Shown: positions 28,144 to 40,048 of the stretch, in pieces
Layout of the letters: each line of letters opens with the position of its first letter
How positions within the stretch are numbered: the stretch's first letter is position 1
Assembly (NCBI RefSeq): GCF_024223415.1
Contig: NZ_CP100500.1
Reading direction: 5' to 3' (one strand)
Source of the DNA: Escherichia coli
Lineage (GTDB): Bacteria; Pseudomonadota; Gammaproteobacteria; Enterobacterales; Enterobacteriaceae
DNA length: 64,000 bases
Made by a program: the position numbers and the translations under genes
Notes under the pieces: generated by a model
What the model saw: only the letters and a program-made list of their open reading frames with translations
The model's database searches: none
What the model was told of the DNA's origin: nothing

Positions 28144-28416
28144 ATGTCTCATACAATCCGTGATAAACAGAAACTGAAAGCGCGTGCCAGTAAGATTCAG
28201 GGCCAGGTCGTGGCGCTCAAGAAAATGCTCGACGAGCCGCACGAATGCGCTGCAGTTTTACAACAGATTGCTGCTATCCGTGGCGCGGTAAACGGTCTGA
28301 TGCGGGAAGTGATTAAAGGTCATCTGACGGAACACATCGTTCACCAGGGGGATGAGCTAAAACGTGAAGAAGATCTGGATGTCGTTCTGAAGGTGCTGGA
28401 TTCATATATCAAATAA
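28144..28416 (+). CDS. rcnR: Ni/Co-responsive transcriptional repressor RcnR
   Basis: 90-aa CsoR/RcnR-family protein. Confidence 0.9.
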
Positions 28417-28504: not shown

Positions 28505-28557
28505 CAACCAAACGACTCGGGGTGCCCTTCTGCGTGAAGGCTGAGAAATACCCGTAT
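28505..28557 (+). ncRNA. 5' fragment of thiM TPP riboswitch aptamer, severed from thiMD by the island insertion
   Basis: Sequence aaccaaacgactcggggtgcccttctgcgtgaaggctgagaaatacccgtat matches the 5' half of the thiM thi-box leader, then diverges into island DNA. Confidence 0.75.
28544..28557. repeat. attL core: 14-bp direct repeat AGAAATACCCGTAT
   Basis: Identical 14-mer found again at 39954-39967 at the other island boundary; both lie within riboswitch sequence. Confidence 0.75.
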
Positions 28558-28643
28558 TTTCTCATTTAGTGTTTTTTGTGGTTCGGGGTTGTTCGTGGTT
28601 GTTTGTGTATGTGTTTGATATATATTGAATTATTGTGTTTTCT

Positions 28644-28718
28644 TGTTTGTTGTTGTTCGTCGTTGTTCGTAGAGCTTCAACAAAATGTGTGGTCAGTTGT
28701 GTGGTCAGTTTTTTGAGG
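28644..28718. repeat. Left copy of ~75-bp near-identical direct repeat just inside the island end
   Basis: ttgttcgtcgttgttcgtagagcttcaacaaaatgtgtggtcagttgtgtggtcagtttt shared with 39821-39895; contains internal TTGTTCGT and TGTGGTCAGTT sub-repeats. Confidence 0.85.
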
Positions 28719-28745: not shown

Positions 28746-29969
28746 GTGGGAAAAGCACTAAACAAACTGAGCGATTCGACGTTAAAAAAATTGGCGTCTG
28801 TCCAAGCAGAAAAAGAGCGTTTTTACTCCGACGGGGGCGGGCTGGAGATTAAACACTCAAAGGGCGGCAAATTAACCTGGTATTTCCGGTACCGAACGGG
28901 AGGCCGTGAGGTTGCCGCAGAGCGGTTAAAGCTGGGGGCTTACCCTGAATTGTCGCTGAAAGCTGCAAGGGAAAAACGCGCACAGTGCCGGGCATGGCTG
29001 GCTGAGGGTAAAAACCCCCGTTATGAGTTGTGCGCCACAGTACAGGAAGCGCTAAAACCCGTTACGGTGAAGGAGGCGATTAACTACTGGCTGGATGAAT
29101 ATGCGAAGGATAACCGCAAAGACTACATAAAGCTGGTGCAACGTATGGATAAGCACATCATTTGCCATATAGGGGCAATTCCCCTTGATAAGTGTGATAC
29201 AAGGCAGTGGATCGCATGTTTTGACCGTGTACGAAAAAAAGCACCAGTAGCAGCAGGGCACGTCATGCAAACCTGCAAACAGGCGCTAAAGTTCTGCCGC
29301 AGGAGACGCTACGCGTTCAGTAATGCCCTGGACGATTTGATCGTCAGCGATGTGGGTAAGAGAGCAGAAATTCGCGAGAGGGTGCACAGCAACAGCGAAT
29401 TAAAGGAAATTTTACGCGCTATTGATGGTGATGTGTTCGCGCCTTACTACAGCGCGTTAATGCGCTTGCTGATTGTGTTCGGGTGCAGAACGGCAGAGGT
29501 CAGACTTTCAGAGATCAAAGAATGGGATCTGAAAGAAATGTTGTGGACAGTGCCAAAAGAGCATAGCAAAACGAAGGTAACGATATTCAGGCCAATCCCC
29601 GATGGCATTTTGCCGTTCATTCAGAAGCTGGTGGAGCAGAACCGGCATACAGGGTTATTACTCGGAGAACTGAAAAAAGATACCACGGTAGCGCAATATG
29701 GGCGAAATGCGCATAAGCGGCTTAACCAGGAACACTGGACGCTGCATGACTTTCGCCACACGTTTACAACGATGCTGAACGATTTAGGTGTCGATCCGCA
29801 TATCGTGGAGCACATCACAGCGCATCAGATGCCCGGTCAGCAAAAAACCTATAACCATTCACGCTATTTACAGGCGAAGCGAGACGCTCTGAATCTGTGG
29901 GTTGAGCGCCTCGATGTGCTGGCTGGAAATCATGAAAATATTGTCATATTAAGGGCTGAAAATGAATAA
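28746..29969 (+). CDS. int: Tyrosine recombinase, P4-type integrase
   Basis: N-terminal arm-binding-like segment (SDGGGLEIKHSKGGKLTWYFRYR) and C-terminal catalytic region (HDFRHTFTT...); apparent GTG start. Confidence 0.9.
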   Translation: MGKALNKLSDSTLKKLASVQAEKERFYSDGGGLEIKHSKGGKLTWYFRYRTGGREVAAERLKLGAYPELSLKAAREKRAQCRAWLAEGKNPRYELCATVQEALKPVTVKEAINYWLDEYAKDNRKDYIKLVQRMDKHIICHIGAIPLDKCDTRQWIACFDRVRKKAPVAAGHVMQTCKQALKFCRRRRYAFSNALDDLIVSDVGKRAEIRERVHSNSELKEILRAIDGDVFAPYYSALMRLLIVFGCRTAEVRLSEIKEWDLKEMLWTVPKEHSKTKVTIFRPIPDGILPFIQKLVEQNRHTGLLLGELKKDTTVAQYGRNAHKRLNQEHWTLHDFRHTFTTMLNDLGVDPHIVEHITAHQMPGQQKTYNHSRYLQAKRDALNLWVERLDVLAGNHENIVILRAENE

Positions 29970-30747
29970 TCTGGGCCGTGTATATCATACGCTGCCAATG
30001 GCAGCTAAAAAAATGGGATGTACTGTAGAGGATATTCTACATTTTGGTGCAACTAACCGACTTGAAATATGTGCGTATATTGATGATATTGAACAGAGAA
30101 AAGATTATTGCACTTTTAATGTGTTTTTTGATAATGAAGATAGCGAGAATAGTTTTTCTAAAACTATAAATAAATATAATTCCATATTTACTGACATGTA
30201 TGAAATATCATTGTTTAATTATAATGATGAGTTTTGTGTTGATGATGAGCGTATGGTTATTGAAGGTTTGTATGCTAATCATATGAAAGGCTTTTTTGCA
30301 ATACCATCTGAATTTCTTGTCGAAGTTGAATTGTCAAGTGCCTGTGAAATCATAAATCTATCGCCTCGTTATTTATATACACCGAAAGGTTATGGTGATT
30401 ATATTCGGTTGGATAGTATAGAAGGTCTTTCTATTCCAGAAAACAGGCTCGTGATATTCGATAGTGAGATATCGGGTTTTAATTATCAAAAGAAACCTAA
30501 ATATGCCGGAGGTGAAAGAGAATCACCTAAAACCAGAGCTAAAAAAGCCGAGATAATACCTGCTCTCATAAAACTGATCCCTGAGATGCAAGATGTGGAT
30601 TTGGAGGATACACCCGTATCCAAAATTGCAGAAATGATAGAGGTTATTGCTGCACAAAGAGGGGTTGAGTTACCTAGCACTCACAGGCAGACATGGCAGA
30701 AATATTTAGGGCGTGATGCTGGTGACGTTCCAAAACGTCAAAAGTGA
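29962..30747 (+). CDS. Hypothetical cargo protein, AT-rich, translationally coupled to int
   Basis: 261-aa ORF overlapping int stop by 8 bp; noticeably lower GC than flanks; no motif recognised. Confidence 0.6.
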   Translation: MNNLGRVYHTLPMAAKKMGCTVEDILHFGATNRLEICAYIDDIEQRKDYCTFNVFFDNEDSENSFSKTINKYNSIFTDMYEISLFNYNDEFCVDDERMVIEGLYANHMKGFFAIPSEFLVEVELSSACEIINLSPRYLYTPKGYGDYIRLDSIEGLSIPENRLVIFDSEISGFNYQKKPKYAGGERESPKTRAKKAEIIPALIKLIPEMQDVDLEDTPVSKIAEMIEVIAAQRGVELPSTHRQTWQKYLGRDAGDVPKRQK

Positions 30748-30837: not shown

Positions 30838-31062
30838 ATGAATCAAAATACACAATTTCAATCACTATCAGATCGCGTAATCCGTGAGGATGAATGCCGT
30901 AAGTTAACAGGAGTGTGCCGCACTACACGCTACGAACTGGAGAAAAAAGGGAGCTTTCCGTCTCGCCGTAATCTTGGTGGGCGTTCTGTAGGTTGGCTGC
31001 TGTCCGAGGTTATGGAATGGGTTAAAAGCCGGGATCGCATTAATTCAGGCAAGGCAGCGTAA
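30838..31062 (+). CDS. alpA: AlpA-family phage transcriptional regulator
   Basis: 74-aa small HTH protein with typical AlpA-like pattern (SDRVIREDECRKLTGVCRTTRYELEKKGSFP). Confidence 0.8.
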   Translation: MNQNTQFQSLSDRVIREDECRKLTGVCRTTRYELEKKGSFPSRRNLGGRSVGWLLSEVMEWVKSRDRINSGKAA

Positions 31063-31200
31063 AGGGGAGTATATGACACATAAAACAAAGGCGACCGGGG
31101 GCGGTCGCCAATGGGAAAACACTAAACATAAGCCCGGCCATCATAGCGATTTGCTGGCTGGTGGGCAATGTGTCCAGTGTGGTGGCTTGCTGGTGGATTG

Positions 31201-31428
31201 TCAGCCAGGCGGTCGGTTTTTGCCGGATTTAAGCCGCCGTGGGTATTTATCGACAAAATCTTCAAGGGCAAATTTTTCTGGTGGCACTAAGCGCGGCGCT
31301 GGTGGTGGTATTTTTGTTCTGGTTAGTTCTTCCTCAAGTCTGGCGCAGGCTTCTGACTGCCTTTGCCGGATGATTTCATCATCTTGCGTTTGCGTGTCTT
31401 GTATTGGTGATAGTGTGTTGTTGGTCAT
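31201..31428 (-). CDS. Hypothetical protein, second gene of leftward operon
   Basis: 75-aa ORF downstream of the RHH-like gene on the minus strand, followed by a hairpin at 31094-31112. Confidence 0.45.
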   Translation of the reverse strand: MTNNTLSPIQDTQTQDDEIIRQRQSEACARLEEELTRTKIPPPAPRLVPPEKFALEDFVDKYPRRLKSGKNRPPG

Positions 31429-31485
31429 GATACTGCCCTGTAAAGCAATGCGCCGTAGTACCTCACACCACGGCGCTGATAGTGA

Positions 31486-31683
31486 TTATTCTGATTCTTT
31501 GGCCTTGCGGCGCTGTTCATATTTTAATTTGCGTCCACAGGCATCTAAGACCCATGCGGAAAAATTAGCACTAGGATTAGTTAATTTTTCTTGTTCAACG
31601 CTGGCATCAATCCCATCTATAAGCTCATGTGGGAATCGAATATTTTTCTTTGCTGATTTGTTGTTTGTGTTACCACTAGACAT
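31486..31683 (-). CDS. Putative ribbon-helix-helix DNA-binding protein, candidate island repressor
   Basis: 65-aa ORF; N-terminal KKNIRFPHELIDGID resembles the beta-strand/helix of CopG/Arc-type RHH proteins; divergent from rightward operon. Confidence 0.45.
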   Translation of the reverse strand: MSSGNTNNKSAKKNIRFPHELIDGIDASVEQEKLTNPSANFSAWVLDACGRKLKYEQRRKAKESE

Positions 31684-31710
31684 TGATGCACCTCACTTAA
31701 ATGGACTTTA

Positions 31711-31790
31711 TGGGCGCACACAATACAGCAAAAAAAGTGAGAAGTTAAGTATTGACATGTGCGCACACATGATTCTAATCTGTGCGCACA
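31711..31790. promoter_or_regulatory. Divergent promoter/operator region with three copies of palindrome TGTGCGCACA
   Basis: tgggcgcaca (31711-31720), tgtgcgcaca (31758-31767), tgtgcgcaca (31781-31790); TTGACA at 31752-31757 immediately precedes the second site. Confidence 0.55.
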
Positions 31791-31882
31791 GTTTGGGTTG
31801 CATTGCTCAAATTAAGCAACGCCCCGCAGTGCTCGCAACACATGCAGGGCGTCTAACCAAACCGTTAATAGGAGTAACGATT

Positions 31883-32083
31883 ATGGCTGGAACACAGCAT
31901 ACCCCACGCCTTGCGCACACACAAACCGCCTTTGTGTGGCGTTTTCTGGCACTGAGTGCCGGAGAATCTCAAATTATCCACGTAACCGCCTGGACGGAAC
32001 GCGAAGCGCGTAACCGTTGCCCGTCCGGTTGTGTCGCTGTATTCGCCGCCCGTATCCGTCAGGGGGAAACCTATGCACAATAA
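31883..32083 (+). CDS. Small protein, possibly Icd-like (host cell division inhibitor family)
   Basis: 67-aa ORF with good RBS (aggag), first gene of rightward operon; family assignment from memory of similar small P4-like proteins, weak. Confidence 0.4.
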   Translation: MAGTQHTPRLAHTQTAFVWRFLALSAGESQIIHVTAWTEREARNRCPSGCVAVFAARIRQGETYAQ

Positions 32084-32303: not shown

Positions 32304-32523
32304 AATACCTTTTGATGTTCTTATTCATTCTGAAAACGCATTAATCCGTGCAAAGGAAATGGACGCATTACTACTTAAGTTAATTGATGTGCCGGAAAGT
32401 GGCGATGAATCTGATTCAATAATGTTTTCTGCCGTGCGTACGCTATTAACGCATGTTATTAATGAATTAAATACAGTGATGGCAATTCACGAGAATAATA
32501 AAGCGCAGCACACCGGAGAATAA
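32296..32523 (+). CDS. Hypothetical protein
   Basis: 75-aa ORF, start overlaps upstream stop, RBS gggaga. Confidence 0.45.
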   Translation: MHKIPFDVLIHSENALIRAKEMDALLLKLIDVPESGDESDSIMFSAVRTLLTHVINELNTVMAIHENNKAQHTGE

Positions 32524-32528
32524 AAACC

Positions 32529-32828
32529 ATGAAAAATAAAAATTCTGGCGTTAATGCCAGCGGCCCCGCTCGGCCTGAATTTATGAACGGCGATATTTAC
32601 CGCGACCAGTACGGCGGCACGGTAACGATTAAAGGCGTGGAGGAACGGCGCATCACTTACCGCCGTGAAGGCTACGAATATGATTGCGTGATGCCTGTTT
32701 ATCAGTTCCGGCGTGATTTTTCTCTGGTACAGGCAGCGCCCCGCAGTAAACCAACCAGCAGGGAGAAAGCACGCGCCAATATTCAGGAAATAAAAAAGAT
32801 GCTTAACGTATTCAGGGGTAAAAAATGA
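32529..32828 (+). CDS. Hypothetical protein
   Basis: 99-aa ORF, ATGA-coupled to the primase gene. Confidence 0.45.
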   Translation: MKNKNSGVNASGPARPEFMNGDIYRDQYGGTVTIKGVEERRITYRREGYEYDCVMPVYQFRRDFSLVQAAPRSKPTSREKARANIQEIKKMLNVFRGKK

Positions 32829-34573
32829 AACTGGCACCGAACGTAAAAAAACAGCCGCGTGGAATAAAACACAAAGACACAGAGGTGATTATCTTTGCGG
32901 GTAGTGATGCCTGGGCGCACGCGAAACAGTGGCAGGAACAGGACGGCCCCGCATCCGGCGATGATGTGCCGCCTGTGTGGCTCGGGCCAAATCAGCTTGC
33001 TGAACTGGATGCACTGAAAATTGTACCGGAGGGAAAAAAACGCGTAAGGCTGTACAGGGCCGGAGAACTGGATTTGGTGGAGACCAAAAAGATTGGTCAG
33101 AAGCTGGCGGCGGCAGATATTCAGGATGCGAATTTTTACTCTGAAGGAATGCACGGCCAGAAGGTGCAGAACTGGCGGCGCTATCTGAGTGCTGAGCGTG
33201 AAAATATTGCCGCAGGGCTTACCATGCCGGAACAGAAAAAAGCACAACTTTCACAGATGGCAGACAGTGAACGGGCACAGCTTCTTTCTTCCCGCTTTGA
33301 TGGTGTCTGCGTCCATGCAGAAAGTGAAATCGTTCACGTATGGCGCGGCGGGGTATGGTGTCCGGTCAGCACAATGGAACTTAGCCGCGAAATGGTGGCG
33401 ATCTATTCAGAGCACAGGGCCACTTTCAGCAAGCGCGTAATCAATAACGCCGTGGAAGCGTTAAAAGTTATTGCCGAACCAATGGGCGAGCCGTCCGGCG
33501 ATTTGCTGCCGTTCGCCAATGGTGCGCTTGACCTGAAAACGGGGGAATTTTCCCCGCACACGCCGGAGAACTGGATCACCACGCACAACGGCATTGAGTA
33601 CACGCCACCAGCACCAGGGGAGAATATCTGCGACAACGCGCCAAACTTTCATAAATGGCTTGAGCACGCAGCCGGAAAAGACCCGCGCAAGATGATGCGT
33701 ATATGTGCCGCGCTGTACATGATTATGGCGAACCGGTACGACTGGCAGATGTTTATTGAGGCCACCGGAGACGGCGGGAGCGGCAAAAGTACATTCACAC
33801 ACATAGCCAGCCTTCTGGCAGGGAAACAGAACACGGTAAGCGCTGAGATGACATCGCTTGATGATGCTGGTGGGCGTGCGCAGGTTGTCGGGAGTCGGCT
33901 TATTGTCCTGGCAGACCAGCCGAAATATACAGGCGAAGGAACGGGCATCAAGAAAATCACGGGCGGAGACCCCGTGGAAATAAACCCGAAATATGAGAAG
34001 CGTTTTACGGCGGTAATCAGGGCGGTGGTGCTGGCTACCAACAATAACCCGATGATATTCACCGAACGGGCCGGAGGTGTGTCACGTCGTCGCGTAATTT
34101 TCCGTTTCGACAATATCGTCAGTGAGGCTGAAAAAGACAGGGAGCTACCGGAAAAGATTGCGGCTGAAATCCCTGTCATTATCCGCCGCTTGCTGGCGAA
34201 CTTTGCCGACCCTGAAAAGGCACGGGCTTTACTCATTGAACAGCGAGACGGTGATGAAGCTCTGGCAATAAAGCAACAGACGGATCCGGTTATTGAGTTT
34301 TGCCAGTTTCTGAATTTTCTGGAGGAAGCGCGCGGCCTGATGATGGGCGGCGGCGGTGACTCTTCCAGGTACACGACCAGAAACAGCCTTTACCGCGTCT
34401 ATCTGGCGTTTATGGCGTATGCAGGCAGGAGCAAACCGCTAAACGTAAATGACTTTGGCAAGGCTATGAAGCCAGCGGCGAAAGTTTACGGACATGAATA
34501 TATAACGCGCAGGATTAAAGGGTTTACGCAAACCAACGTGACAACAACAGACGACTGCGACGCGTTTTTATAA
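32825..34573 (+). CDS. Phage/plasmid primase, P4 family (NTPase/helicase domain)
   Basis: 582-aa ORF with Walker A GDGGSGKST and D5/P4-alpha-like C-terminal NTPase architecture. Confidence 0.8.
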   Translation: MKLAPNVKKQPRGIKHKDTEVIIFAGSDAWAHAKQWQEQDGPASGDDVPPVWLGPNQLAELDALKIVPEGKKRVRLYRAGELDLVETKKIGQKLAAADIQDANFYSEGMHGQKVQNWRRYLSAERENIAAGLTMPEQKKAQLSQMADSERAQLLSSRFDGVCVHAESEIVHVWRGGVWCPVSTMELSREMVAIYSEHRATFSKRVINNAVEALKVIAEPMGEPSGDLLPFANGALDLKTGEFSPHTPENWITTHNGIEYTPPAPGENICDNAPNFHKWLEHAAGKDPRKMMRICAALYMIMANRYDWQMFIEATGDGGSGKSTFTHIASLLAGKQNTVSAEMTSLDDAGGRAQVVGSRLIVLADQPKYTGEGTGIKKITGGDPVEINPKYEKRFTAVIRAVVLATNNNPMIFTERAGGVSRRRVIFRFDNIVSEAEKDRELPEKIAAEIPVIIRRLLANFADPEKARALLIEQRDGDEALAIKQQTDPVIEFCQFLNFLEEARGLMMGGGGDSSRYTTRNSLYRVYLAFMAYAGRSKPLNVNDFGKAMKPAAKVYGHEYITRRIKGFTQTNVTTTDDCDAFL

Positions 34574-34597
34574 TTTTTTGTAATTGCTGTCTACCCT

Positions 34598-34815
34598 GTC
34601 TACCTGAGTAAAGAAAAATACATTTAATTCAGTGCATTAAGTTAGGTAGATAGCCTTTTTTTACTGTCTACCCACTATCTACCCTCTCTACCTGATTTTA
34701 CCAGAATCAGACAGGGAGGTAGACACGGGGTAGATAGTGGATAAAAGCACTCTACCCCGCTGAAAGCCGCGCCATTACTGGCATGAGGGCCACTAAGGTA
34801 GGTAAGGTAGACAAG
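34598..34815. repeat. Iteron cluster, putative island replication origin
   Basis: Many direct and inverted copies of GTCTACC/TCTACCC/GGTAGA motifs immediately downstream of the primase gene. Confidence 0.6.
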
Positions 34816-34861
34816 GGGAGGCACAACTCAAAACTTTTTAAACGAGGGGGTAAAAATAAAA

Positions 34862-35119
34862 ATGCACACATCAGAAAAATTTAACAATCAGAAGAAATCA
34901 CATAACCGCGCCATTGACCTTACAGAGCACTGGCTGAGGGTGGCGATAAAAATCATCGACCGCAACGCGGGAGAAGGATACGCGAAAGCACATCCCGAAC
35001 TGATAAGCGCATTCATGACCACAGCGGCGGCAAACTTTGCCACGTTGACAGAACGGGAGATTGCCGAAGCGGAACAGGTGACAACCATCAATGTTAAAAC
35101 CGGAGAGCAGACAGCATGA
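34862..35119 (+). CDS. Hypothetical protein
   Basis: 85-aa ORF, ATGA-coupled to ssb. Confidence 0.45.
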   Translation: MHTSEKFNNQKKSHNRAIDLTEHWLRVAIKIIDRNAGEGYAKAHPELISAFMTTAAANFATLTEREIAEAEQVTTINVKTGEQTA

Positions 35120-35526
35120 CAGCACAGATAGCGGCTTACGGGCGGCTGGTGGACGACCCGCAGACAAAACAGACCAGCAAGGGAACACCGATGACGCTGG
35201 CACGTATGGCGGTATCGCTGCCATGCAGCCAGGCACAGGATGGACAGGCGACGTTATGGCTATCGGTCATCGCATTTGGTAAGCAGGCCGACTTCCTGGC
35301 TAAACATCAAAAAGGCGACGTTGCCAGCGTATCCGGCACGATGCAGGTCAGCCAGTGGACCGGACAGAACGGGGAAACGCGGCAGGGTTATCAGGTTATT
35401 GCAGACAGCGTAATCAGTGCCCGTGCGGCACGTCCTGGCGGGAACAGACGCAAAACCACAGGCACACAGGGTAATCAGCCACCAGCGGGAGGCGATGACC
35501 CTTACGGTGATGATATTCCGTTCTGA
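35116..35526 (+). CDS. ssb: Single-stranded DNA-binding protein
   Basis: OB-fold-like N-terminus, Gly/Pro-rich linker and acidic C-terminal tail ending DDIPF. Confidence 0.8.
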   Translation: MTAQIAAYGRLVDDPQTKQTSKGTPMTLARMAVSLPCSQAQDGQATLWLSVIAFGKQADFLAKHQKGDVASVSGTMQVSQWTGQNGETRQGYQVIADSVISARAARPGGNRRKTTGTQGNQPPAGGDDPYGDDIPF

Positions 35527-35536
35527 GGGGGTGACG

Positions 35537-35809
35537 ATGGTACATGACCGGATAGCGGAGGAACTGGAGGCGAAAGGATTTTACCGGAGGGCGGCCGCGC
35601 GATGGGGTGAAGTTATGAGGCTGGTGAGCACTGACAAGGAGCGCGAACAGGTGGCAATGCGACGGCTGGAATGTTCACAGAAGGCACAGAGGCCACCGGA
35701 GCCGCCGGATGATTTAGGCGCTCTGAAAAGGTCAGTTAATCGCACTGAAAAACAAATGGGGATAGCTGGTATTGGCAAAGCAATATGGCGCAACTACCCG
35801 CAGAAGTGA
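35537..35809 (+). CDS. Small putative transcriptional regulator, PerC-like
   Basis: 90-aa ORF; resemblance to PerC-family prophage regulators is from memory and weak. Confidence 0.4.
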   Translation: MVHDRIAEELEAKGFYRRAAARWGEVMRLVSTDKEREQVAMRRLECSQKAQRPPEPPDDLGALKRSVNRTEKQMGIAGIGKAIWRNYPQK

Positions 35810-35815
35810 GCACAC

Positions 35816-35839
35816 AGCCGGAGCAATCCGGCTTTTTTG
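35816..35839 (+). terminator. Intrinsic terminator
   Basis: agccggagcaatccggc followed by TTTTTT. Confidence 0.6.
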
Positions 35840-35843
35840 CACC

Positions 35844-35887
35844 CAAAAAAAGCCCGATAAGTACAGGAGGCATCTTATCGGGCTTTT
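35844..35887. terminator. Second hairpin, bidirectional-looking
   Basis: A-run, stem gcccgataag...cttatcgggc, T-run. Confidence 0.55.
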
Positions 35888-35966
35888 GCATATGAGGTTT
35901 TTTTTGGTGCACTGACACACATGATCGGGATAATCATTTCATAATTTGCAACGTAACTCAATATTG

Positions 35967-36015
35967 TTGCGCAAAATGCAATCATGATTATAATCAGGAC
36001 TGGATGAACATCCAG
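35967..36015 (+). promoter_or_regulatory. Sigma70-like promoter with downstream dyad operator ahead of the capsid operon
   Basis: TTGCGC (35967-35972), 16-bp spacer, TATAAT (35989-35994), then perfect dyad ctggatgaacatccag (36000-36015). Confidence 0.5.
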
Positions 36016-36050
36016 TTATGATTTTTTAAGTCAAAGAGGAATTTCTGACT

Positions 36051-36257
36051 ATGGCAGAAGAGAAAAAAGGCGGGGTGACGGTCTACATAAGCCCCGACAT
36101 CGTGGAGGCGCTCAAGGAACGCCACCAGCAGAATGTAAAAGCAGGCATTGCGGCAGGACTTGATCCGCTGGCGATGGTTGAGCCGTCAACAGGCTGGCAG
36201 GTGCGTACCTATTTACGTGCGGCGCTGGGTATCAATCAGGTTCACGGAGGTGAATAA
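36051..36257 (+). CDS. Hypothetical small protein, first gene of capsid operon
   Basis: 68-aa ORF with RBS, stop overlaps capsid gene start. Confidence 0.45.
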   Translation: MAEEKKGGVTVYISPDIVEALKERHQQNVKAGIAAGLDPLAMVEPSTGWQVRTYLRAALGINQVHGGE

Positions 36258-37312
36258 TGACAGGCAAAGCAACGGCACTTACAACTAACCAGCTTTTCGC
36301 GTACCTGAATCGCGGGGATATTTCGGAATTAAAATTCAGTCCGCTGTTTACCACGCTGTTTTTCCCGAACGTGGCGACCTTCAACACCCAAAACATCATG
36401 CTGGACACCCTGGACATTGAAGAGGTTACGATGTCAGCGTTCTGTTCGCCTATGGTGGGTAGTCAGGTCCAGCGCGATAAAGGGTACGAAACCAGCACAA
36501 TCAAACCTGGCTACATGAAGCCAAAGCACGAAATCGATCCAACAAAGACCATCATGCGCATGGCTGGAGAAGATCCGGCACAGCTTAACGACCCAACCTA
36601 TCGCCGTATGCGCCTGATTACTGGCAACATGCGCCGCCAGGTAAACGCCATTAAAGCGCGTGTTGAATGGCTGGCGGTGAATGCGGTAACGACCGGAAAA
36701 AACATCATTGAGGGCGAAGGCATAGAACGCTATGAAATCGACTGGAAAATACCGGAAAACTGCATCATACAGCAGGCCAGTGGTAAAAAATGGTCCCAGC
36801 AGGATAAAGACATGCACGACCCAATCTATGACATCGAGCTTTATGCTGATCAGGCAGGTTGCCCCGCCAACGTCATGATTATGGGCGGTGAGGTATGGCG
36901 CACATTACGCAGCTTTAAAAAATTCCGTGAACTGTACGATCTTTCCCGTGGATCAGAATCCGCCGCCGAGCTGGCCTGTAAAAACCTGGGCGAAGTGGTG
37001 AGCTTTAAAGGCTATCTTGGTGATCTGGCCCTTATCGTCTATTCCGGCAAATACACTGACAGCGACGGCACCGAAAAATATTTCCTTGAGCCTGATTTGC
37101 TGGTCCTGGGTAACACCAATAATAAAGGGCTGGTGGCATATGGTGCGATTATGGATCAGGAAGCGGTAAGAACGGGCGCAACGCAAAACATGTACTACCC
37201 GAAAAACTGGATTGAGGACGGCGATCCGGCGATTGAGTACGTGCAGACGCACAGCGCACCGCAGCCGGTACCGGCAGATATTCGCAAATTTGTTACCGTC
37301 AAAATTGCTTAA
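36257..37312 (+). CDS. Major capsid protein, lambda gpE-like
   Basis: Clear blocks of similarity to lambda gpE from memory: KFSPLFTTLFF, KPGYMKPKHEIDP, EDPAQLNDPTYRRMR, YSGKY, YPKNWIEDGDPA. Confidence 0.85.
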   Translation: MTGKATALTTNQLFAYLNRGDISELKFSPLFTTLFFPNVATFNTQNIMLDTLDIEEVTMSAFCSPMVGSQVQRDKGYETSTIKPGYMKPKHEIDPTKTIMRMAGEDPAQLNDPTYRRMRLITGNMRRQVNAIKARVEWLAVNAVTTGKNIIEGEGIERYEIDWKIPENCIIQQASGKKWSQQDKDMHDPIYDIELYADQAGCPANVMIMGGEVWRTLRSFKKFRELYDLSRGSESAAELACKNLGEVVSFKGYLGDLALIVYSGKYTDSDGTEKYFLEPDLLVLGNTNNKGLVAYGAIMDQEAVRTGATQNMYYPKNWIEDGDPAIEYVQTHSAPQPVPADIRKFVTVKIA

Positions 37313-37323
37313 CGGGGGATTCT

Positions 37324-37659
37324 ATGGACGCTCCATATATTGAGTTATTTGCAGGCAGCCAGCAGGTATCCACGACGCTGGTACATTTTGCCGCTGATGC
37401 TGGCGTTATTCAGGAATTTACCCCGCTGATGCTGGCAGACAATGGCGAGTTTAAGGCGTGGGATGGTCAGGAATCTGGCAAAGCTGTTTATCTGACTTCG
37501 CACCCCGTGGACACGTCAAAGCAGAAATCAGCACAGTGTTACAAAACGGGGATATTCAATATTGCCGCCGTTAACTGGCCTGACAGCGTCGACACCGATG
37601 CGAAAAAATGCGCCGCCTTTGCGGGTTCCGGCGTATCCGTTCAGCCGCTGGCCCGATAA
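37324..37659 (+). CDS. Head decoration protein, lambda gpD-like
   Basis: Similarity to lambda gpD blocks: TPLMLADNGEFKAWDG and YKTG.F....WPDSVDTDAKKCAAFAGSGVSV. Confidence 0.75.
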   Translation: MDAPYIELFAGSQQVSTTLVHFAADAGVIQEFTPLMLADNGEFKAWDGQESGKAVYLTSHPVDTSKQKSAQCYKTGIFNIAAVNWPDSVDTDAKKCAAFAGSGVSVQPLAR

Positions 37660-37671
37660 GCAGGGGGAACG

Positions 37672-38085
37672 ATGGCAACGAATGAAAGTATCATGACGCT
37701 ACCGCTGGCGAGTAAATTTAAAGCCGAAGCGCGGGCAATGGCTGACAGAGGTTTATCAACCTACGAGGCCATACACCGACTAAACAAACTGGAAGAACAG
37801 GACAAGCCGCGCGCTGATGCGATTATGGCGCTTCATGAATCTGACGACTACCAGCCGCTGTTACGTGCAATGGCTAACGTGCCTTGTATCGATGTTGGTA
37901 CGGCTAAAAGCATCCTTAGCATGACCATAGAGCAGGAACGCCCGAAGGTTGCACCAGAGCTTACTTCAGCCTTTGAAAACTTTATGGACATGCACAGCCC
38001 GAAAGCCGTATCAGCTGGCATGGCATACGATGGCAGAACCCCGTGCGATGACGGCGACATCGACCGCATACTGAAAACCATCTGA
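37672..38085 (+). CDS. Hypothetical head-module protein
   Basis: 137-aa ORF directly after the decoration gene; no motif recognised. Confidence 0.45.
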   Translation: MATNESIMTLPLASKFKAEARAMADRGLSTYEAIHRLNKLEEQDKPRADAIMALHESDDYQPLLRAMANVPCIDVGTAKSILSMTIEQERPKVAPELTSAFENFMDMHSPKAVSAGMAYDGRTPCDDGDIDRILKTI

Positions 38086-38090
38086 GACAA

Positions 38091-38116
38091 GGCCGGAGAA
38101 ATCCGGCTTTTTTTGC
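38091..38116 (+). terminator. Intrinsic terminator after capsid operon
   Basis: aggccggagaaatccggc followed by TTTTTTT; near-duplicate of the hairpin at 35816. Confidence 0.6.
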
Positions 38117-38200
38117 GGGTCCTTTCCGGCATGTGGACCCGTTACGGGGCGTCGACCTCGCACGTTTTCGCTATTTATGACGTTTTTCCGTGAAGGTGAC
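38115..38200 (+). other. Lambda-like cos site (cosQ-cosN-proximal cosB), copy 1, upstream of terS-like gene
   Basis: gggtcctttccgg...gttacg GGGCGTCGACCT cgcacgttttcgctatttatga closely resembles remembered lambda cos (gggtcctttccgg...gttacg GGGCGGCGACCT cgcgggttttcgctatttatgaaaa). Confidence 0.7.
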
Positions 38201-38247
38201 ACCACCACCACTTGATTAATATTTAACCATGTAGTTAAGGTAACATT

Positions 38248-38682
38248 ATGATTGATAAAGCTTGTTTTGTAAGTCAGCAGGAAATAGCTGAACATTTCAA
38301 TGTTAACAGAACCACTATTCGCGCATGGACCAAACAGGGGATGCCGTATCTTAATGCGGATCGCGGAAAGTCTGGCGGTTATCACATCGGGCATACATTG
38401 TTTTGGTATTCAGGTAAAAGCCATCTTCAGACCATCGGATATCACGTAGAAACCAGTGCGCTGGAAAAAATTATGTTTGCCAGGCTGCTTTCATCTGAGC
38501 GTGACGAGTACTCCAGTGAAGAAACAGAACATCGATTTGATGAAGGTTTGCAGATTTACGGCTATTCACCGGAAGATGTGAGCAAGGCACGAAATAAAAT
38601 GGCTGGCTTTCTGGCTGGGTGGCGTCATGCCGTAAGCGTTCGCCGTGCCAGCATGGAGCAATCAGCCGATACAGAACAGTAA
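38248..38682 (+). CDS. Terminase small subunit-like protein (Nu1-like winged-helix N-terminus)
   Basis: N-terminus QQEIAEHFNVNRTTIRAWTKQGMPYL parallels lambda Nu1 KKQLADIFGASIRTIQNWQEQGMPVL; C-terminal part is divergent. Confidence 0.7.
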   Translation: MIDKACFVSQQEIAEHFNVNRTTIRAWTKQGMPYLNADRGKSGGYHIGHTLFWYSGKSHLQTIGYHVETSALEKIMFARLLSSERDEYSSEETEHRFDEGLQIYGYSPEDVSKARNKMAGFLAGWRHAVSVRRASMEQSADTEQ

Positions 38683-38714
38683 AGCCGATAACTTGTTAAT
38701 CACGCGCAGCAATG

Positions 38715-38850
38715 CGTGTGATTTTTGCACACTTCCGGTTAACGGGTACGATGTCCGGTTTGTTTGTACATTTTTTGCACATGTCCGGTTCGCAGAAAGC
38801 ATGTTTTTATATTTTTCAGATAGTTAACTTGCAGAGAAACCGGACATGGA
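38715..38850. repeat. Direct and inverted repeats TTTTTGCACA..TCCGGTT / AACCGGACATGG downstream of terS-like gene
   Basis: tttttgcacacttccggtt (~38722), ttttttgcacatgtccggtt (~38771), aaccggacatgg (38838-38849). Confidence 0.6.
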
Positions 38851-38930
38851 TCCCGAAAAATTTTCATAAATAGTGAAAACGCGCGGGTTCGACGCCCCGT
38901 AACGGGCCATAATTCCAGAAGGACCCGACG
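38845..38930 (-). other. Lambda-like cos sequence, copy 2, inverted relative to copy 1
   Basis: Reverse complement reads cgggtccttctgg...gttacg GGGCGTCGAACC cgcgcgttttcactatttatgaaaatttttcggg; long imperfect inverted repeat of 38115-38200. Confidence 0.65.
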
Positions 38931-38960
38931 ACACCAGACTATCAGAGCGATGGGGGCACA

Positions 38961-39242
38961 ATGACAGAAGCCGAACTACTGGGATTAATCCGCCGCGTTA
39001 CCGGAATCAGCCAGCAGCATGACGAACAGGCCACGCAGCCGGACAGCGTGACCGCCGAAAATTATGTGCGTGTTGTTGCGGAGGTGATGCGCCGTGACGG
39101 TATTGAGCTTAACGGCGTGGATATGCGCGACATACGGATCCGCGTTCTGGAAATGCTGGCATACCGTCGCCGCGTGCAGACGTACAGGGAAAAAGCAAAA
39201 ATAACGTACCACTGGAAGAAGCCGGAACGACTGCGTACGTAA
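38961..39242 (+). CDS. Hypothetical protein
   Basis: 93-aa ORF downstream of cos copy 2. Confidence 0.4.
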   Translation: MTEAELLGLIRRVTGISQQHDEQATQPDSVTAENYVRVVAEVMRRDGIELNGVDMRDIRIRVLEMLAYRRRVQTYREKAKITYHWKKPERLRT

Positions 39243-39374
39243 TACGTACGGACATCGAGATAACGCAAAATTGCGCTGGCTACATCCCTCACATCTGAGG
39301 ACTGATAACAAGCTGCCTGAAAGACAGTCACAAACTACGAAATTTTCGCAGTTTAATTAATGGTCAGCTTAATC

Positions 39375-39665
39375 GCTAACCCGCTGATATTTTCGGAAAC
39401 ATCAATTTGAGGAAGTCGGCGCGGTAACTCGCTGAACTTAAAGCAAAGCGCAAAATTGCGCTGATTACTGGTTGGAATTGTTCCAGAGTGCAAATTTGCA
39501 CTCTGGCCTAACCCGTTGATTATTTCGAAAACCTGCAATGCAGGAAATCGGGGAAGTAAGCCTAAGCTATTGATTGTTTCGAAAACCACCATTGGGGGAT
39601 GTCGGGAAAGTAAGACTAACCCATTGATTCTTCCACAATCCTCAATGTGAGGAGGCCGGACATCG
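39375..39665. repeat. Four ~54-bp imperfect repeats (three in tandem), each with a variable central CAAT-containing near-palindrome
   Basis: Units at ~39375, 39506, 39560, 39614 share CTAACCC.TTGATT.TTTCGAAAAC and TCGGG.AAGTAAG flanks around a variable centre (e.g. cctgcaatgcagg, cctcaatgtgagg). Confidence 0.7.
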
Positions 39666-39820: not shown

Positions 39821-39895
39821 TTGTTTGTTATTGTTCGTCGTTGTTCGTAGAGCTTCAACAAAATGTGTGGTCAGTTGTGTGGTCAGTTTTGAGGT
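39821..39895. repeat. Right copy of ~75-bp near-identical direct repeat just inside the island end
   Basis: Same ~60-bp core as 28644-28718. Confidence 0.85.
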
Positions 39896-39953
39896 TTTTA
39901 ATTCTTATGTGCTGAAAAACTTATTAATTATCAACTGATAACAAAAATTAGTA

Positions 39954-39967
39954 AGAAATACCCGTAT
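39954..39967. repeat. attR core: 14-bp direct repeat AGAAATACCCGTAT
   Basis: Identical to 28544-28557; continues directly into riboswitch 3' sequence. Confidence 0.75.
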
Positions 39968-40048
39968 CACCTGATCTGGATAATGCCAGCGTAGGGAAGT
40001 CACGGACCACCAGGTCATTGCTTCTTCACGTTATGGCAGGAGCAAACT
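39954..40048 (+). ncRNA. 3' part of thiM TPP riboswitch (P4/P5 plus expression platform) retained upstream of thiM
   Basis: gaaatacccgtatcacctgatctggataatgccagcgtagggaagtcacggaccaccaggtcattgcttcttcacgttatggcaggagcaaact ATG matches the thiM leader 3' half. Confidence 0.75.

Follow-up and report, generated by a model that had tools for sequence, protein, structure and literature searches.

What does a phage satellite gain from its own capsid and decoration proteins when it lacks genes for a portal, a protease, a large terminase and tails? The question is raised by an island within a window of 64,000 nucleotides of Escherichia coli DNA, where an earlier note, made from the sequence alone, had recognised a lambda gpE-like capsid protein and a gpD-like decoration protein and proposed a new minimal strategy, in which small heads sized for a genome of about 11 kb are completed with parts borrowed from a lambdoid helper. 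We find these proteins to be as described and arrive at a different reading of what they are for.

The island is an EcCICFT073-family satellite in the thiM leader

Comparison with the empty-site sequence placed the island between two 14-bp cores, giving a size of 11,410 bp. On the attL side the empty site matches exactly up to the core and diverges beyond it. A pair of 70-nt direct repeats (28643–28712 and 39821–39890) was rejected as the island ends, since the empty-site comparison puts both inside the island and makes AGAAATACCCGTAT the true core; the published att core of EcCI224 is identical. The insertion splits the thiM TPP riboswitch. An Rfam scan of the island found no RNA family at gathering score, and searches of the 64-kb window found neither a tRNA nor a helper prophage. 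The features outside the capsid operon are:

28544–28557, no strand: attL core AGAAATACCCGTAT, within the aptamer of the thiM TPP riboswitch, with the aptamer's 5′ half on this side
28746–29969, + strand: tyrosine integrase (phrog_1 integrase, E 4.6e-67)
30838–31062, + strand: AlpA-type regulator/excisionase (phrog_2790, E 1e-17; named HTH regulator in related islands)
32825–34573, + strand: P4-type DNA primase, pri-rep (phrog_864 DNA primase, E 7.8e-168)
35116–35526, + strand: single-stranded DNA-binding protein, SSB (phrog_44, E 1.7e-40; TIGR00621 above cutoff)
35540–35809, + strand: PerC-family regulator (phrog_994 and transcriptional-activator PHROGs; CFT073 orthologue annotated as PerC family)
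38147–38158, + strand: cos1 cosN GGGCGTCGACCT, differing from lambda at one position; counterpart of cos.1, which is functional in EcCICFT073
38248–38682, + strand: RppA, redirecting phage packaging protein, 95% identical to CFT073 c1503
38886–38897, − strand: cos2-like cosN, inverted and degenerate, GGGCGTCGAACC, found by eye at the position of CFT073 cos.2
38961–39242, + strand: 93-aa conserved protein (phrog_1561, E 1.6e-56), kept in all related islands and corresponding in gene order to the CFT073 gene directly downstream of rppA (c1503)
39954–39967, no strand: attR core AGAAATACCCGTAT, with the 3′ half of the thiM riboswitch beyond it

The sequence features by which a Gram-negative PICI is recognised are present: an island in the 10–15 kb range at a specific att site with the integrase at one end, an AlpA-type regulator with a pri-rep replication module, a packaging module of cos and RppA, and a lack of phage genes for lysis, tails, portal and large terminase. 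PHROG scans covering every ORF of the island found, outside the operon, only integrase, AlpA, primase, SSB, the PerC-like regulator, Rpp and proteins of no named function; the absence of portal, protease, TerL and tail genes, as claimed earlier, was confirmed, and lysis genes were likewise absent. The scans also found no portal, protease, head-tail adaptor/connector or TerL of the kind that defines a capsid-forming PICI (cf-PICI), and no Sid, Psu or Delta annotation on any island ORF, the primase being the sole P4-like feature. The contrast drawn in the earlier note with P4 and with cf-PICIs carrying fuller head modules is therefore well founded.

The model Gram-negative PICI EcCICFT073 (Fillol-Salom et al. 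2018, 2019) shares 91.6% nucleotide identity with the island over 6.7 kb, and it is this identity over the late half, from DUF4222 to c1504, that places the island in the same family. Gene order there corresponds 1:1 (DUF4222, primase, SSB, PerC, 68-aa gene, c1499, c1500, c1501, cos1, rppA, cos2, 93-aa gene). Together with int, alpA, pri-rep, cos and RppA, this bears out the description of the locus as a satellite. EcCICFT073 has a different integrase, att site and left-hand genes, and lies between ycfD (roxA) and phoQ rather than in the thiM leader. EcCI224 and others at the rcnR (frmR)–thiM site share the core AGAAATACCCGTAT and the flanking genes; a closely related island at this site in strain OkiPb01685 covers only 79% of the present one and has a 180-aa Nu1-type small terminase in place of RppA.

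The cos1 site and rppA, which the earlier note had missed, lie directly downstream of the operon. Rpp proteins divert the helper's terminase to the cos site of the island (PMC6739421). The protein encoded here has the TerS-like N-terminal HTH and the similarity to a solved Rpp that mark the family, matching RppC (PDB 6HLK) at E 1.6e-33 and Nu1 HTH domains weakly. Aligned to lambda and to cos.1 of CFT073, cos1 carries a G-to-T change in the cohesive end, and cos2 is degenerate by comparison with EcCICFT073.

A tight operon encodes E-type capsid and D-type decoration proteins

Positions 36051–38085 form a tight four-gene operon, in the order 68-aa protein, E-type capsid, D-type decoration and scaffold homologue (137 aa), in which the stop codon of the 68-aa gene overlaps the start codon of the capsid gene:

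35816–35888, + strand: two tandem terminator-like hairpins (terminator scan match at 35816–35833; the second found by eye)
35945–36017, + strand: conserved promoter-like region with palindromes TTGCAA and TTGCGCAA and a perfect −10 TATAAT at 35989–35994
36051–36257, + strand: 68-aa protein (phrog_3255, E 8.7e-36)
36257–37312, + strand: lambda gpE-type major capsid protein, 351 aa, orthologue of CFT073 c1499 (PDB 3BQW)
37324–37659, + strand: lambda gpD-type head decoration protein, 111 aa, orthologue of CFT073 c1500
37672–38085, + strand: truncated Nu3-type scaffolding-protein homologue, 137 aa, orthologue of CFT073 c1501
38087–38113, + strand: intrinsic terminator ending the operon, a near-copy of the terminator at 35812–35838

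The second upstream hairpin has a GC stem with A and T runs and is kept in the alignment of related islands; the terminator-like pair would separate the capsid operon transcriptionally from the replication operon. The promoter-like region is conserved across seven islands, and a leader hairpin at 35998–36017, followed by a T run, has a predicted stability of −15 kcal/mol (z −2.4) and matches the terminator scan. With terminators upstream and a conserved TATAAT, it is plausible that the operon is driven by its own promoter.

The profile searches proposed in the earlier note supported homology for both shell proteins. The 351-aa protein matches Pfam Phage_cap_E (PF03864) over nearly its full length (E 1.1e-50), the PHROG 'major head protein' (E 3e-109), lambda gpE (43% identity over 343 aa, E 9e-93) and the solved lambda capsid 7VI9 (E 8.7e-81); it also shares about 95% identity with CFT073 c1499, whose structure is PDB 3BQW. 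The 111-aa protein matches Pfam HDPD, the lambda gpD family (PF02924, E 2.1e-17), and lambda gpD itself (36% identity over 76 aa), and among solved structures is closest to the phage 21 decoration protein (1TD0, E 4.6e-13). Each therefore has both a Pfam profile and a solved-structure match in its family, and their identification as gpE-like and gpD-like is secure.

The 137-aa protein resembles the lambda scaffold Nu3

Both small flanking proteins had been taken as lacking any recognisable role, which holds for the 68-aa protein and does not for the 137-aa protein. The latter is a member of phrog_1999 (E 6e-62), a family matched by lambda Nu3 residues 117–200 at E 2.7e-26 and likewise by gpC 355–438, and a bridging protein, P0041, gives BLASTP matches of 4e-11 to the 137-aa protein and 2e-16 to Nu3. 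Direct comparison with lambda gpC/Nu3 was uninformative, BLASTP giving nothing significant and hhalign a weak E of 0.03; the case for scaffold homology is carried by the PHROG profiles and the bridging protein. By profile and transitively, we conclude, it is a truncated Nu3-type scaffold homologue, an assignment that is new here; the EcCICFT073 paper lists c1501 in its table as a protein of 137 aa. The NCBI name 'head-tail connector' for this protein has no Pfam, NCBIfam or PHROG backing.

Pfam had no match for the 137-aa or 68-aa protein, and NCBIfam none for any of the four operon proteins. Structure models of the two small proteins reached a pLDDT of 73 and 64 (moderate confidence), and Foldseek found no significant match for them in PDB or BFVD. 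The 137-aa model is all-helical, at low confidence, and an exhaustive HMMER search of 1.84 billion representatives returned only nine relatives of this protein. The 68-aa model has two helices, with matches to ribbon-helix-helix-type folds that are not significant, and in related islands, too, its gene precedes the E gene.

Lambda Nu3, D and E belong to the same families as the operon proteins (PF03864, PF02924 and the Nu3 C-terminal repeat region). Gene order, however, is E-D-scaffold in the island and scaffold-D-E in lambda, the scaffold homologue is about two thirds the length of Nu3 (137 versus 201 aa) and stands alone rather than nested in a protease gene, and the lambda genes B, C, W, FI and FII have no counterparts here.

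The module is a satellite-specific lineage under purifying selection

All four genes are intact in seven islands that differ in their replicases, packaging genes and att sites, and all four are under purifying selection: dN/dS is 0.07–0.20 for E, 0.03–0.19 for D and 0.1–0.4 for the 68-aa gene, except in one close pair where a value of 0.76 comes from seven substitutions. The module occurs in 597 of 5,426 complete E. coli genomes (11%). Among 50,697 phage records no capsid is more than 47% identical to that of the island, and homologues at 54–94% identity all lie within int-alpA-pri islands. D co-diverges with E, and both are 34–47% identical to the capsid proteins of lambda-like helpers, even in islands embedded in a helper. 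The satellite E and D form a clade of their own; this clade, the selection on all four genes and the 11% occurrence are new in the present analysis. Intactness, dN/dS and occurrence indicate that the parts of the module are functional, and the scaffold assignment, together with the deep, co-diverging E/D clade, argues for proteins that assemble a cognate shell.

Helper-embedded PICIs (11capE; PMC10111431) share the plan of the island, with E-type capsid and decoration genes, and differ in sitting inside helper prophage late genes instead of a chromosomal leader; the loci L004, L009 and L010 of the present analysis are of this type, and in L009 and L010 the capsid is only 55% identical to the present one and an AlpA-like gene replaces the Nu3-like gene. 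Because some of these relatives split the helper E gene and carry their own E and D (PMC10111431), the module might be a backup copy for the helper capsid genes they cut, and a passenger in chromosomal islands. We consider this highly improbable: the interrupted helper E is 90–98% identical to lambda E, and satellite E shares only 33–47% identity with it; excision restores the helper gene (PMC10111431); and chromosomal islands, at several att sites, show purifying selection of the same strength.

Published experiments speak against small heads and interference

A 2018 study described the capsid and decoration genes of the EcCICFT073 family (PMC6092414); of 29 reference Gram-negative PICIs, 21 have a capsid gene, and SatelliteFinder models include a 'capsid morphogenesis' component. 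That satellites of this type have E-type and D-type genes is thus already known, and their presence here re-discovers a published feature. Helper-dependent induction, packaging and high-frequency transfer have been demonstrated in EcCICFT073 alone, using phage 4, lambda and phi80. There, deletion of c1499 or c1500 left both transfer by the native helper and interference with lambda unchanged, and an island with a c1499::cat replacement was transferred at 1e5–1e6 per ml (PMC6092414). The capsid-gene deletion suggested in the earlier note had thus been made by others in EcCICFT073, with no change in transfer. We rejected the idea that the c1501::tetA marker disrupts the Nu3-like gene and confounds these nulls: primers in Table S6 put the cassette right after the c1501 stop, and the module is therefore intact in the marked island.

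If E, D and their partners built satellite-sized heads on helper portals, each would hold one 11.4-kb genome. A set of cognate E, D and scaffold proteins that is kept under purifying selection does resemble a kit for such a shell, a T=3 shell would by our own scaling hold about 13.6 kb, and there are precedents in SaPIbov5 Ccm and in PmCI172 with its 38-nm heads. These are likewise satellite capsid homologues in a packaging region, linked to small capsids, whereas the EcCICFT073 family has yielded neither small capsids nor a phenotype. CFT073 with an intact module and its native helper gave no PICI-monomer band, no small heads were found and DNA packaged with lambda was phage-sized (PMC6092414). 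The lambda lysogen donor in Table 1 carried c1499::cat, and the lambda experiment on DNA size may therefore have been done without the capsid gene. The same group's later papers treat such islands as packaged in large capsids, and island sizes of 10.6–11.4 kb suit four copies per lambda head. Given the null knockouts, the phage-sized DNA and the missing monomer band, the strategy proposed in the earlier note finds no support in a family already published, and we regard small heads as very unlikely. In the searchable literature we found no publication on virion proteomics of these particles, and no proteomic or EM report of island E or D in particles.

Alternatively, island capsid and decoration proteins may act as poison or decoy subunits that derail head assembly in some lambdoid phages, be they helpers or not, thereby protecting the host population. 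PICIs typically encode interference functions in such a region, SaPIbov5 Ccm, a capsid homologue, blocks phage reproduction, and 43–47% identity to helper E could permit faulty co-assembly. Neither deletion relieved interference with lambda, however; of the genes expressed singly only c1503 (RppA) inhibited lambda or phi80, a poison subunit would need no co-evolving decoration protein or scaffold, and PADLOC found no defence-system matches. A role in interference or defence is in our view distinctly unlikely.

Discussion

The reading we prefer, at a probability of roughly 70%, is that the island is a classical, cos-packaged, Rpp-type PICI of the EcCICFT073 family carrying an operon of cognate shell parts that is redundant under laboratory helpers. 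Its mode of spread is carried over from the EcCICFT073 experiments. As in that close relative, a lambda-like cos helper phage would induce the island, which would excise by Int and AlpA and replicate with its own primase. RppA would then bind the helper small terminase, so that the helper terminase acts on the cos of the island at 38147 instead. Concatemers would fill phage-sized heads built by the helper, which would then receive helper tails; a head with four copies of the 11.4-kb island would contain 45.6 kb, or about 94% of the lambda length. The operon would supply E-type capsid, D-type decoration, truncated Nu3-type scaffold and a 68-aa partner, which may, in the least certain step, assemble from helper portals, either as part of heads of normal size or alongside them. 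The satellite would become partly independent of the helper capsid supply, which may be of most value to relatives whose insertion site is the E gene of the helper itself. With each of the three helpers used in laboratory tests, helper capsid protein would make the module redundant; because deletions of c1499 and c1500 had no effect, its role in particles is unproven. A simple benefit of supply is weakened in that Rpp blocks phage DNA packaging, so that helper proheads are likely in excess. The absence of the Nu3-like gene from some sub-lineages of related islands and the G-to-T change in the cohesive end of cos1 also count against our preferred reading.

Capsid-forming PICIs such as EcCIEDL933 share the int-alpA-rep backbone and a satellite-encoded capsid protein. 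Unlike the present island, they also encode portal, protease, head-tail connectors, HNH, TerS and TerL, and they make their own small heads; in published phylogenies the capsid genes of cf-PICIs and PICIs separate almost perfectly (PMC10085698). Might E, D, the Nu3-like protein and the 68-aa protein nonetheless build satellite-made shells on helper portals, as a 'half capsid-forming' intermediate? We think this unlikely. If it were true, a large PICI lineage would bridge classical PICIs and cf-PICIs, its shells could be of normal size, or small but only under natural helpers beyond those tried, and helper capsid protein would mask the loss of the module's genes in the published laboratory knockouts.

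The interest of this locus lies not in the presence of capsid genes, but in the puzzle of a module that is selected and yet gives null knockouts: more than one in ten complete E. coli genomes keep a satellite-specific set of capsid, decoration and scaffold genes under strong purifying selection.

A satellite with lambda-type capsid and decoration genes but no portal

The window is E. coli chromosome in which an 11,410-bp phage satellite lies between rcnR and thiM, bounded by 14-bp att cores (attL, 28544-28557; attR, 39954-39967), with every listed island gene on the + strand. No tRNA was found within the window, and no helper prophage in the rest of it, where the remaining ORFs are ordinary chromosomal ones.

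Features of the island and its neighbours (named island functions from PHROG, NCBIfam and Pfam scans)
28144-28416, rcnR, left neighbour of the island
28746-29969, +, integrase
29962-30747, +, 261-aa ORF between int and alpA, in a stretch of 38% GC
30838-31062, +, alpA
between alpA and primase, +, several small ORFs and a DUF4222 protein
32825-34573, +, P4-type primase
after the primase and before the four-gene operon, +, 85-aa protein, SSB and PerC-like regulator
35816-35888, two terminator-like hairpins upstream of the operon
35945-36030, conserved leader before the operon, in which the palindromes TTGCAA and TTGCGCAA overlap the -35 position and are followed by a perfect -10 and a hairpin with T run, ahead of the first gene
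36051-38085, +, operon: 68-aa, capsid, decoration and 137-aa genes
38087-38113, operon-closing terminator, a near-identical copy of the first upstream terminator
38147-38158, cos1, lambda-type, GGGCGTCGACCT, sixty bases past the operon, one mismatch to lambda
38886-38897, cos2, a second cosN, inverted and degenerate, three mismatches
from 40049, thiM, right neighbour of the island

Pfam Phage_cap_E covers almost the whole 351-aa protein (E 1.1e-50), which is 43% identical to lambda gpE across 343 residues; PDB 3BQW matches all 351 residues at ~95% identity, and the orthologue c1499 of CFT073 is 95.2% identical. The 111-aa protein falls in the gpD family (E 2.1e-17) with 36% identity to lambda gpD, the phage 21 decoration protein being somewhat nearer. 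An earlier note had read these as gpE and gpD homologues within a satellite, correctly, and the absences it claimed held: PHROG, NCBIfam and Pfam scans of the island found no portal, protease, large terminase (TerL), connector, tail or lysis genes. The feature is real, but its central claim is already known, since c1499 and c1500 of the published PICI EcCICFT073 were named putative capsid protein and head decoration protein (Fillol-Salom et al. 2018, PMC6092414). According to reviews and later papers, 21 of the 29 reference Gram-negative PICIs carry a capsid gene, and 'capsid morphogenesis' belongs to the core components of PICIs.

The 261-aa ORF, a candidate accessory gene, had no match in PHROG, Pfam or PADLOC; its homologue in strain OkiPb01685, which has a related island at the same site, is annotated hypothetical. 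A 336-aa ORF listed at 31073-32083 is low-complexity and lacks annotation in related islands; the true genes there are apparently short ORFs on the minus strand, among them one for a 65-aa YlcI/YnfO-family protein at 31486-31683. Downstream of the last island gene and before attR, a 54-nt unit occurs three times at 39374-39613, its copies 70-78% identical.

A putative scaffold in the module

The 137-aa protein, an unknown in the earlier note, belongs to phrog_1999 over its full length (E 6e-62) and also hits the protease/scaffold family phrog_53 at that family's C-terminal end. In turn, phrog_1999 is matched by residues 117-200 of lambda Nu3 (E 2.7e-26) and by the corresponding part of gpC (E 1.5e-25). 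Direct similarity to Nu3 is weak; an exhaustive HMMER search recovered P0041, a 195-aa protein of three Nu3-type repeats that aligns with both the 137-aa protein (E 4e-11) and lambda Nu3 (E 2e-16). The predicted model is all-helical, including a terminal helix, and has a disordered tail; fold searches with it were uninformative. From the profiles and the P0041 bridge we conclude that this protein is a putative truncated, stand-alone Nu3-type scaffold, a new annotation. Many NCBI records name its family (P0002-P0034) 'phage head-tail connector protein', a name that we rejected, as Pfam, NCBIfam and PHROG give it no support.

The 68-aa protein is phrog_3255, has two predicted helices and accompanies the capsid gene in most sub-lineages; the sole hints of likeness to ribbon-helix-helix proteins were below significance.

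The module is an old, satellite-specific set

All four genes are intact in seven islands that differ in integration site, replicase (primase or RepA helicase) and packaging gene (RppA or a 180-aa Nu1-type TerS). Across these, dN/dS is 0.07-0.20 for E, 0.03-0.19 for D, 0.17-0.55 for the scaffold and mostly 0.1-0.4 for the 68-aa gene, for which one closely related pair gives 0.76 from 7 substitutions. The operon occurs at ≥90% identity in 597 of 5,426 complete E. coli genomes, and no capsid more than 47% identical was found among 50,697 phage records. Sampled homologues from Escherichia and Salmonella, at about 55%, 64% and 68% identity, each lie in an int-alpA-primase/helicase-SSB island; further homologues were listed in Edwardsiella and Lelliottia. 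D co-diverges with E. On this evidence the module is an old, cognate, satellite-specific set, neither a recent capture nor a decaying remnant.

Some relatives are embedded in prophage late regions (locus L004, 1819-12034; loci L009 and L010, 1900-12300); two of these, L009 and L010, interrupt the lambda-like E gene of their helper, leaving 91-aa and 254-aa pieces on either side of the island. The module might serve such helper-embedded relatives as a backup, a reading that the low identity of satellite E to helper E counts against: in islands embedded in a lambda-type helper with an E that is 98% lambda-like, satellite E and D are still just 33-47% identical to the helper's.

The operon plausibly has its own promoter

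The four genes form a tight operon, in which the 68-aa gene stop overlaps the capsid gene start and the later genes, each with a strong Shine-Dalgarno sequence, are spaced by 11 and 12 nt. The stretch that separates the upstream terminators from the operon is conserved in the seven islands and holds a perfect TATAAT at 35989-35994. These terminators and the leader with its palindromes, TATAAT and hairpin favour the operon's own promoter claimed in the earlier note, which on this sequence evidence we grade as plausible only. The leader could combine an operator with an attenuator or antitermination arrangement, tying expression to the helper late phase.

Published knockouts of a close relative argue against small heads

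The late half of the island (32498-39226) shares gene order and 91.6% DNA identity with EcCICFT073, for which the published table lists the capsid gene c1499 at 351 aa and c1501 at 137 aa; the decoration gene is c1500 (111 aa in the CFT073 record). Missed by the earlier note, cos1, RppA and the second cosN lie beside the operon. The flanks of cos1 are alignable to both lambda and CFT073 cos.1; position 6 of its 12-nt cohesive end is G-to-T relative to lambda and EcCICFT073, and CGCACG replaces CGCGGG just beyond. The inverted cos2 may be non-functional in the island. Next after cos1, a 144-aa protein is 95% identical to EcCICFT073 RppA and also matches the solved RppC structure 6HLK.

The SaPIbov5 Ccm precedent had motivated the testing of c1499 and c1500 (PMC6092414). 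Deletion of either, for c1499 the very check proposed in the earlier note, left native-helper transfer unchanged and lambda plaques unrestored; the native helper, lambda and phi80 all transferred a c1499::cat replacement, at up to 1e6 per ml; induction gave no PICI-monomer band; and packaged DNA was all phage-sized. Lambda is blocked by c1503 (RppA) only, which switches the terminase of the helper to the island's cos (Fillol-Salom et al. 2019, PMC6739421), and reviews and later papers state that EcCICFT073 has a capsid homologue yet uses large capsids. The suggestion of small heads sized for an ~11-kb genome is thus not supported in this 92%-identical relative. The knockouts likewise weigh against small heads formed with helpers other than those in the published crosses, and against island capsid and decoration proteins acting as poison subunits.

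Confounding of the null results by 'c1501::tetA' breaking the gene beside the decoration gene was rejected: by the published primers, tetA directly follows the c1501 stop codon and precedes the terminator, so the module is intact in that background. Table 1 of PMC6092414 lists a single lambda-lysogen donor, c1499::cat, and the capsid gene may therefore have been absent when packaged DNA was sized with lambda.

As shown for the close relative, the island would be induced by a helper and excised, replicated by its primase, selected at its cos through RppA-TerS retargeting, and packaged as multimers into phage-sized heads. Lambda packages about 78-105% of 48.5 kb. Three island copies (34 kb) fall below this range and four (45.6 kb) within it, and family members of 10.6-11.4 kb are consistent with four copies per lambda-size head. 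Less certainly, E, D and scaffold would assemble a cognate normal-size shell on helper portals, partly independent of helper capsid supply, and helper capsid protein would mask the benefit in laboratory crosses.

The island interrupts the thiM riboswitch

The island sits inside the thiM TPP riboswitch aptamer (28516-28557 and 39880-40048). Beside rcnR, attL keeps the aptamer 5' half and upstream leader, matching the empty site exactly as far as 28557; only the 3' half stays with thiM, preceded by island sequence. There the CUGAGA motif is lost, and the Rfam TPP model reaches 36.4 bits at attR, below its gathering score of 54.3. Direct repeats of 70 nt, 99% identical, lie just inside both ends (28643-28712 and 39821-39890) and contain a doubled motif (TGTGTGGTCAGT x2); excision would place them either side of the attP core, and they are probably integrase arm sites. 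The right junction is common to only 74 of 5,424 E. coli genomes, and a Salmonella relative (locus L013) occupies the same thiM site. Insertion of the island may alter thiMD regulation.
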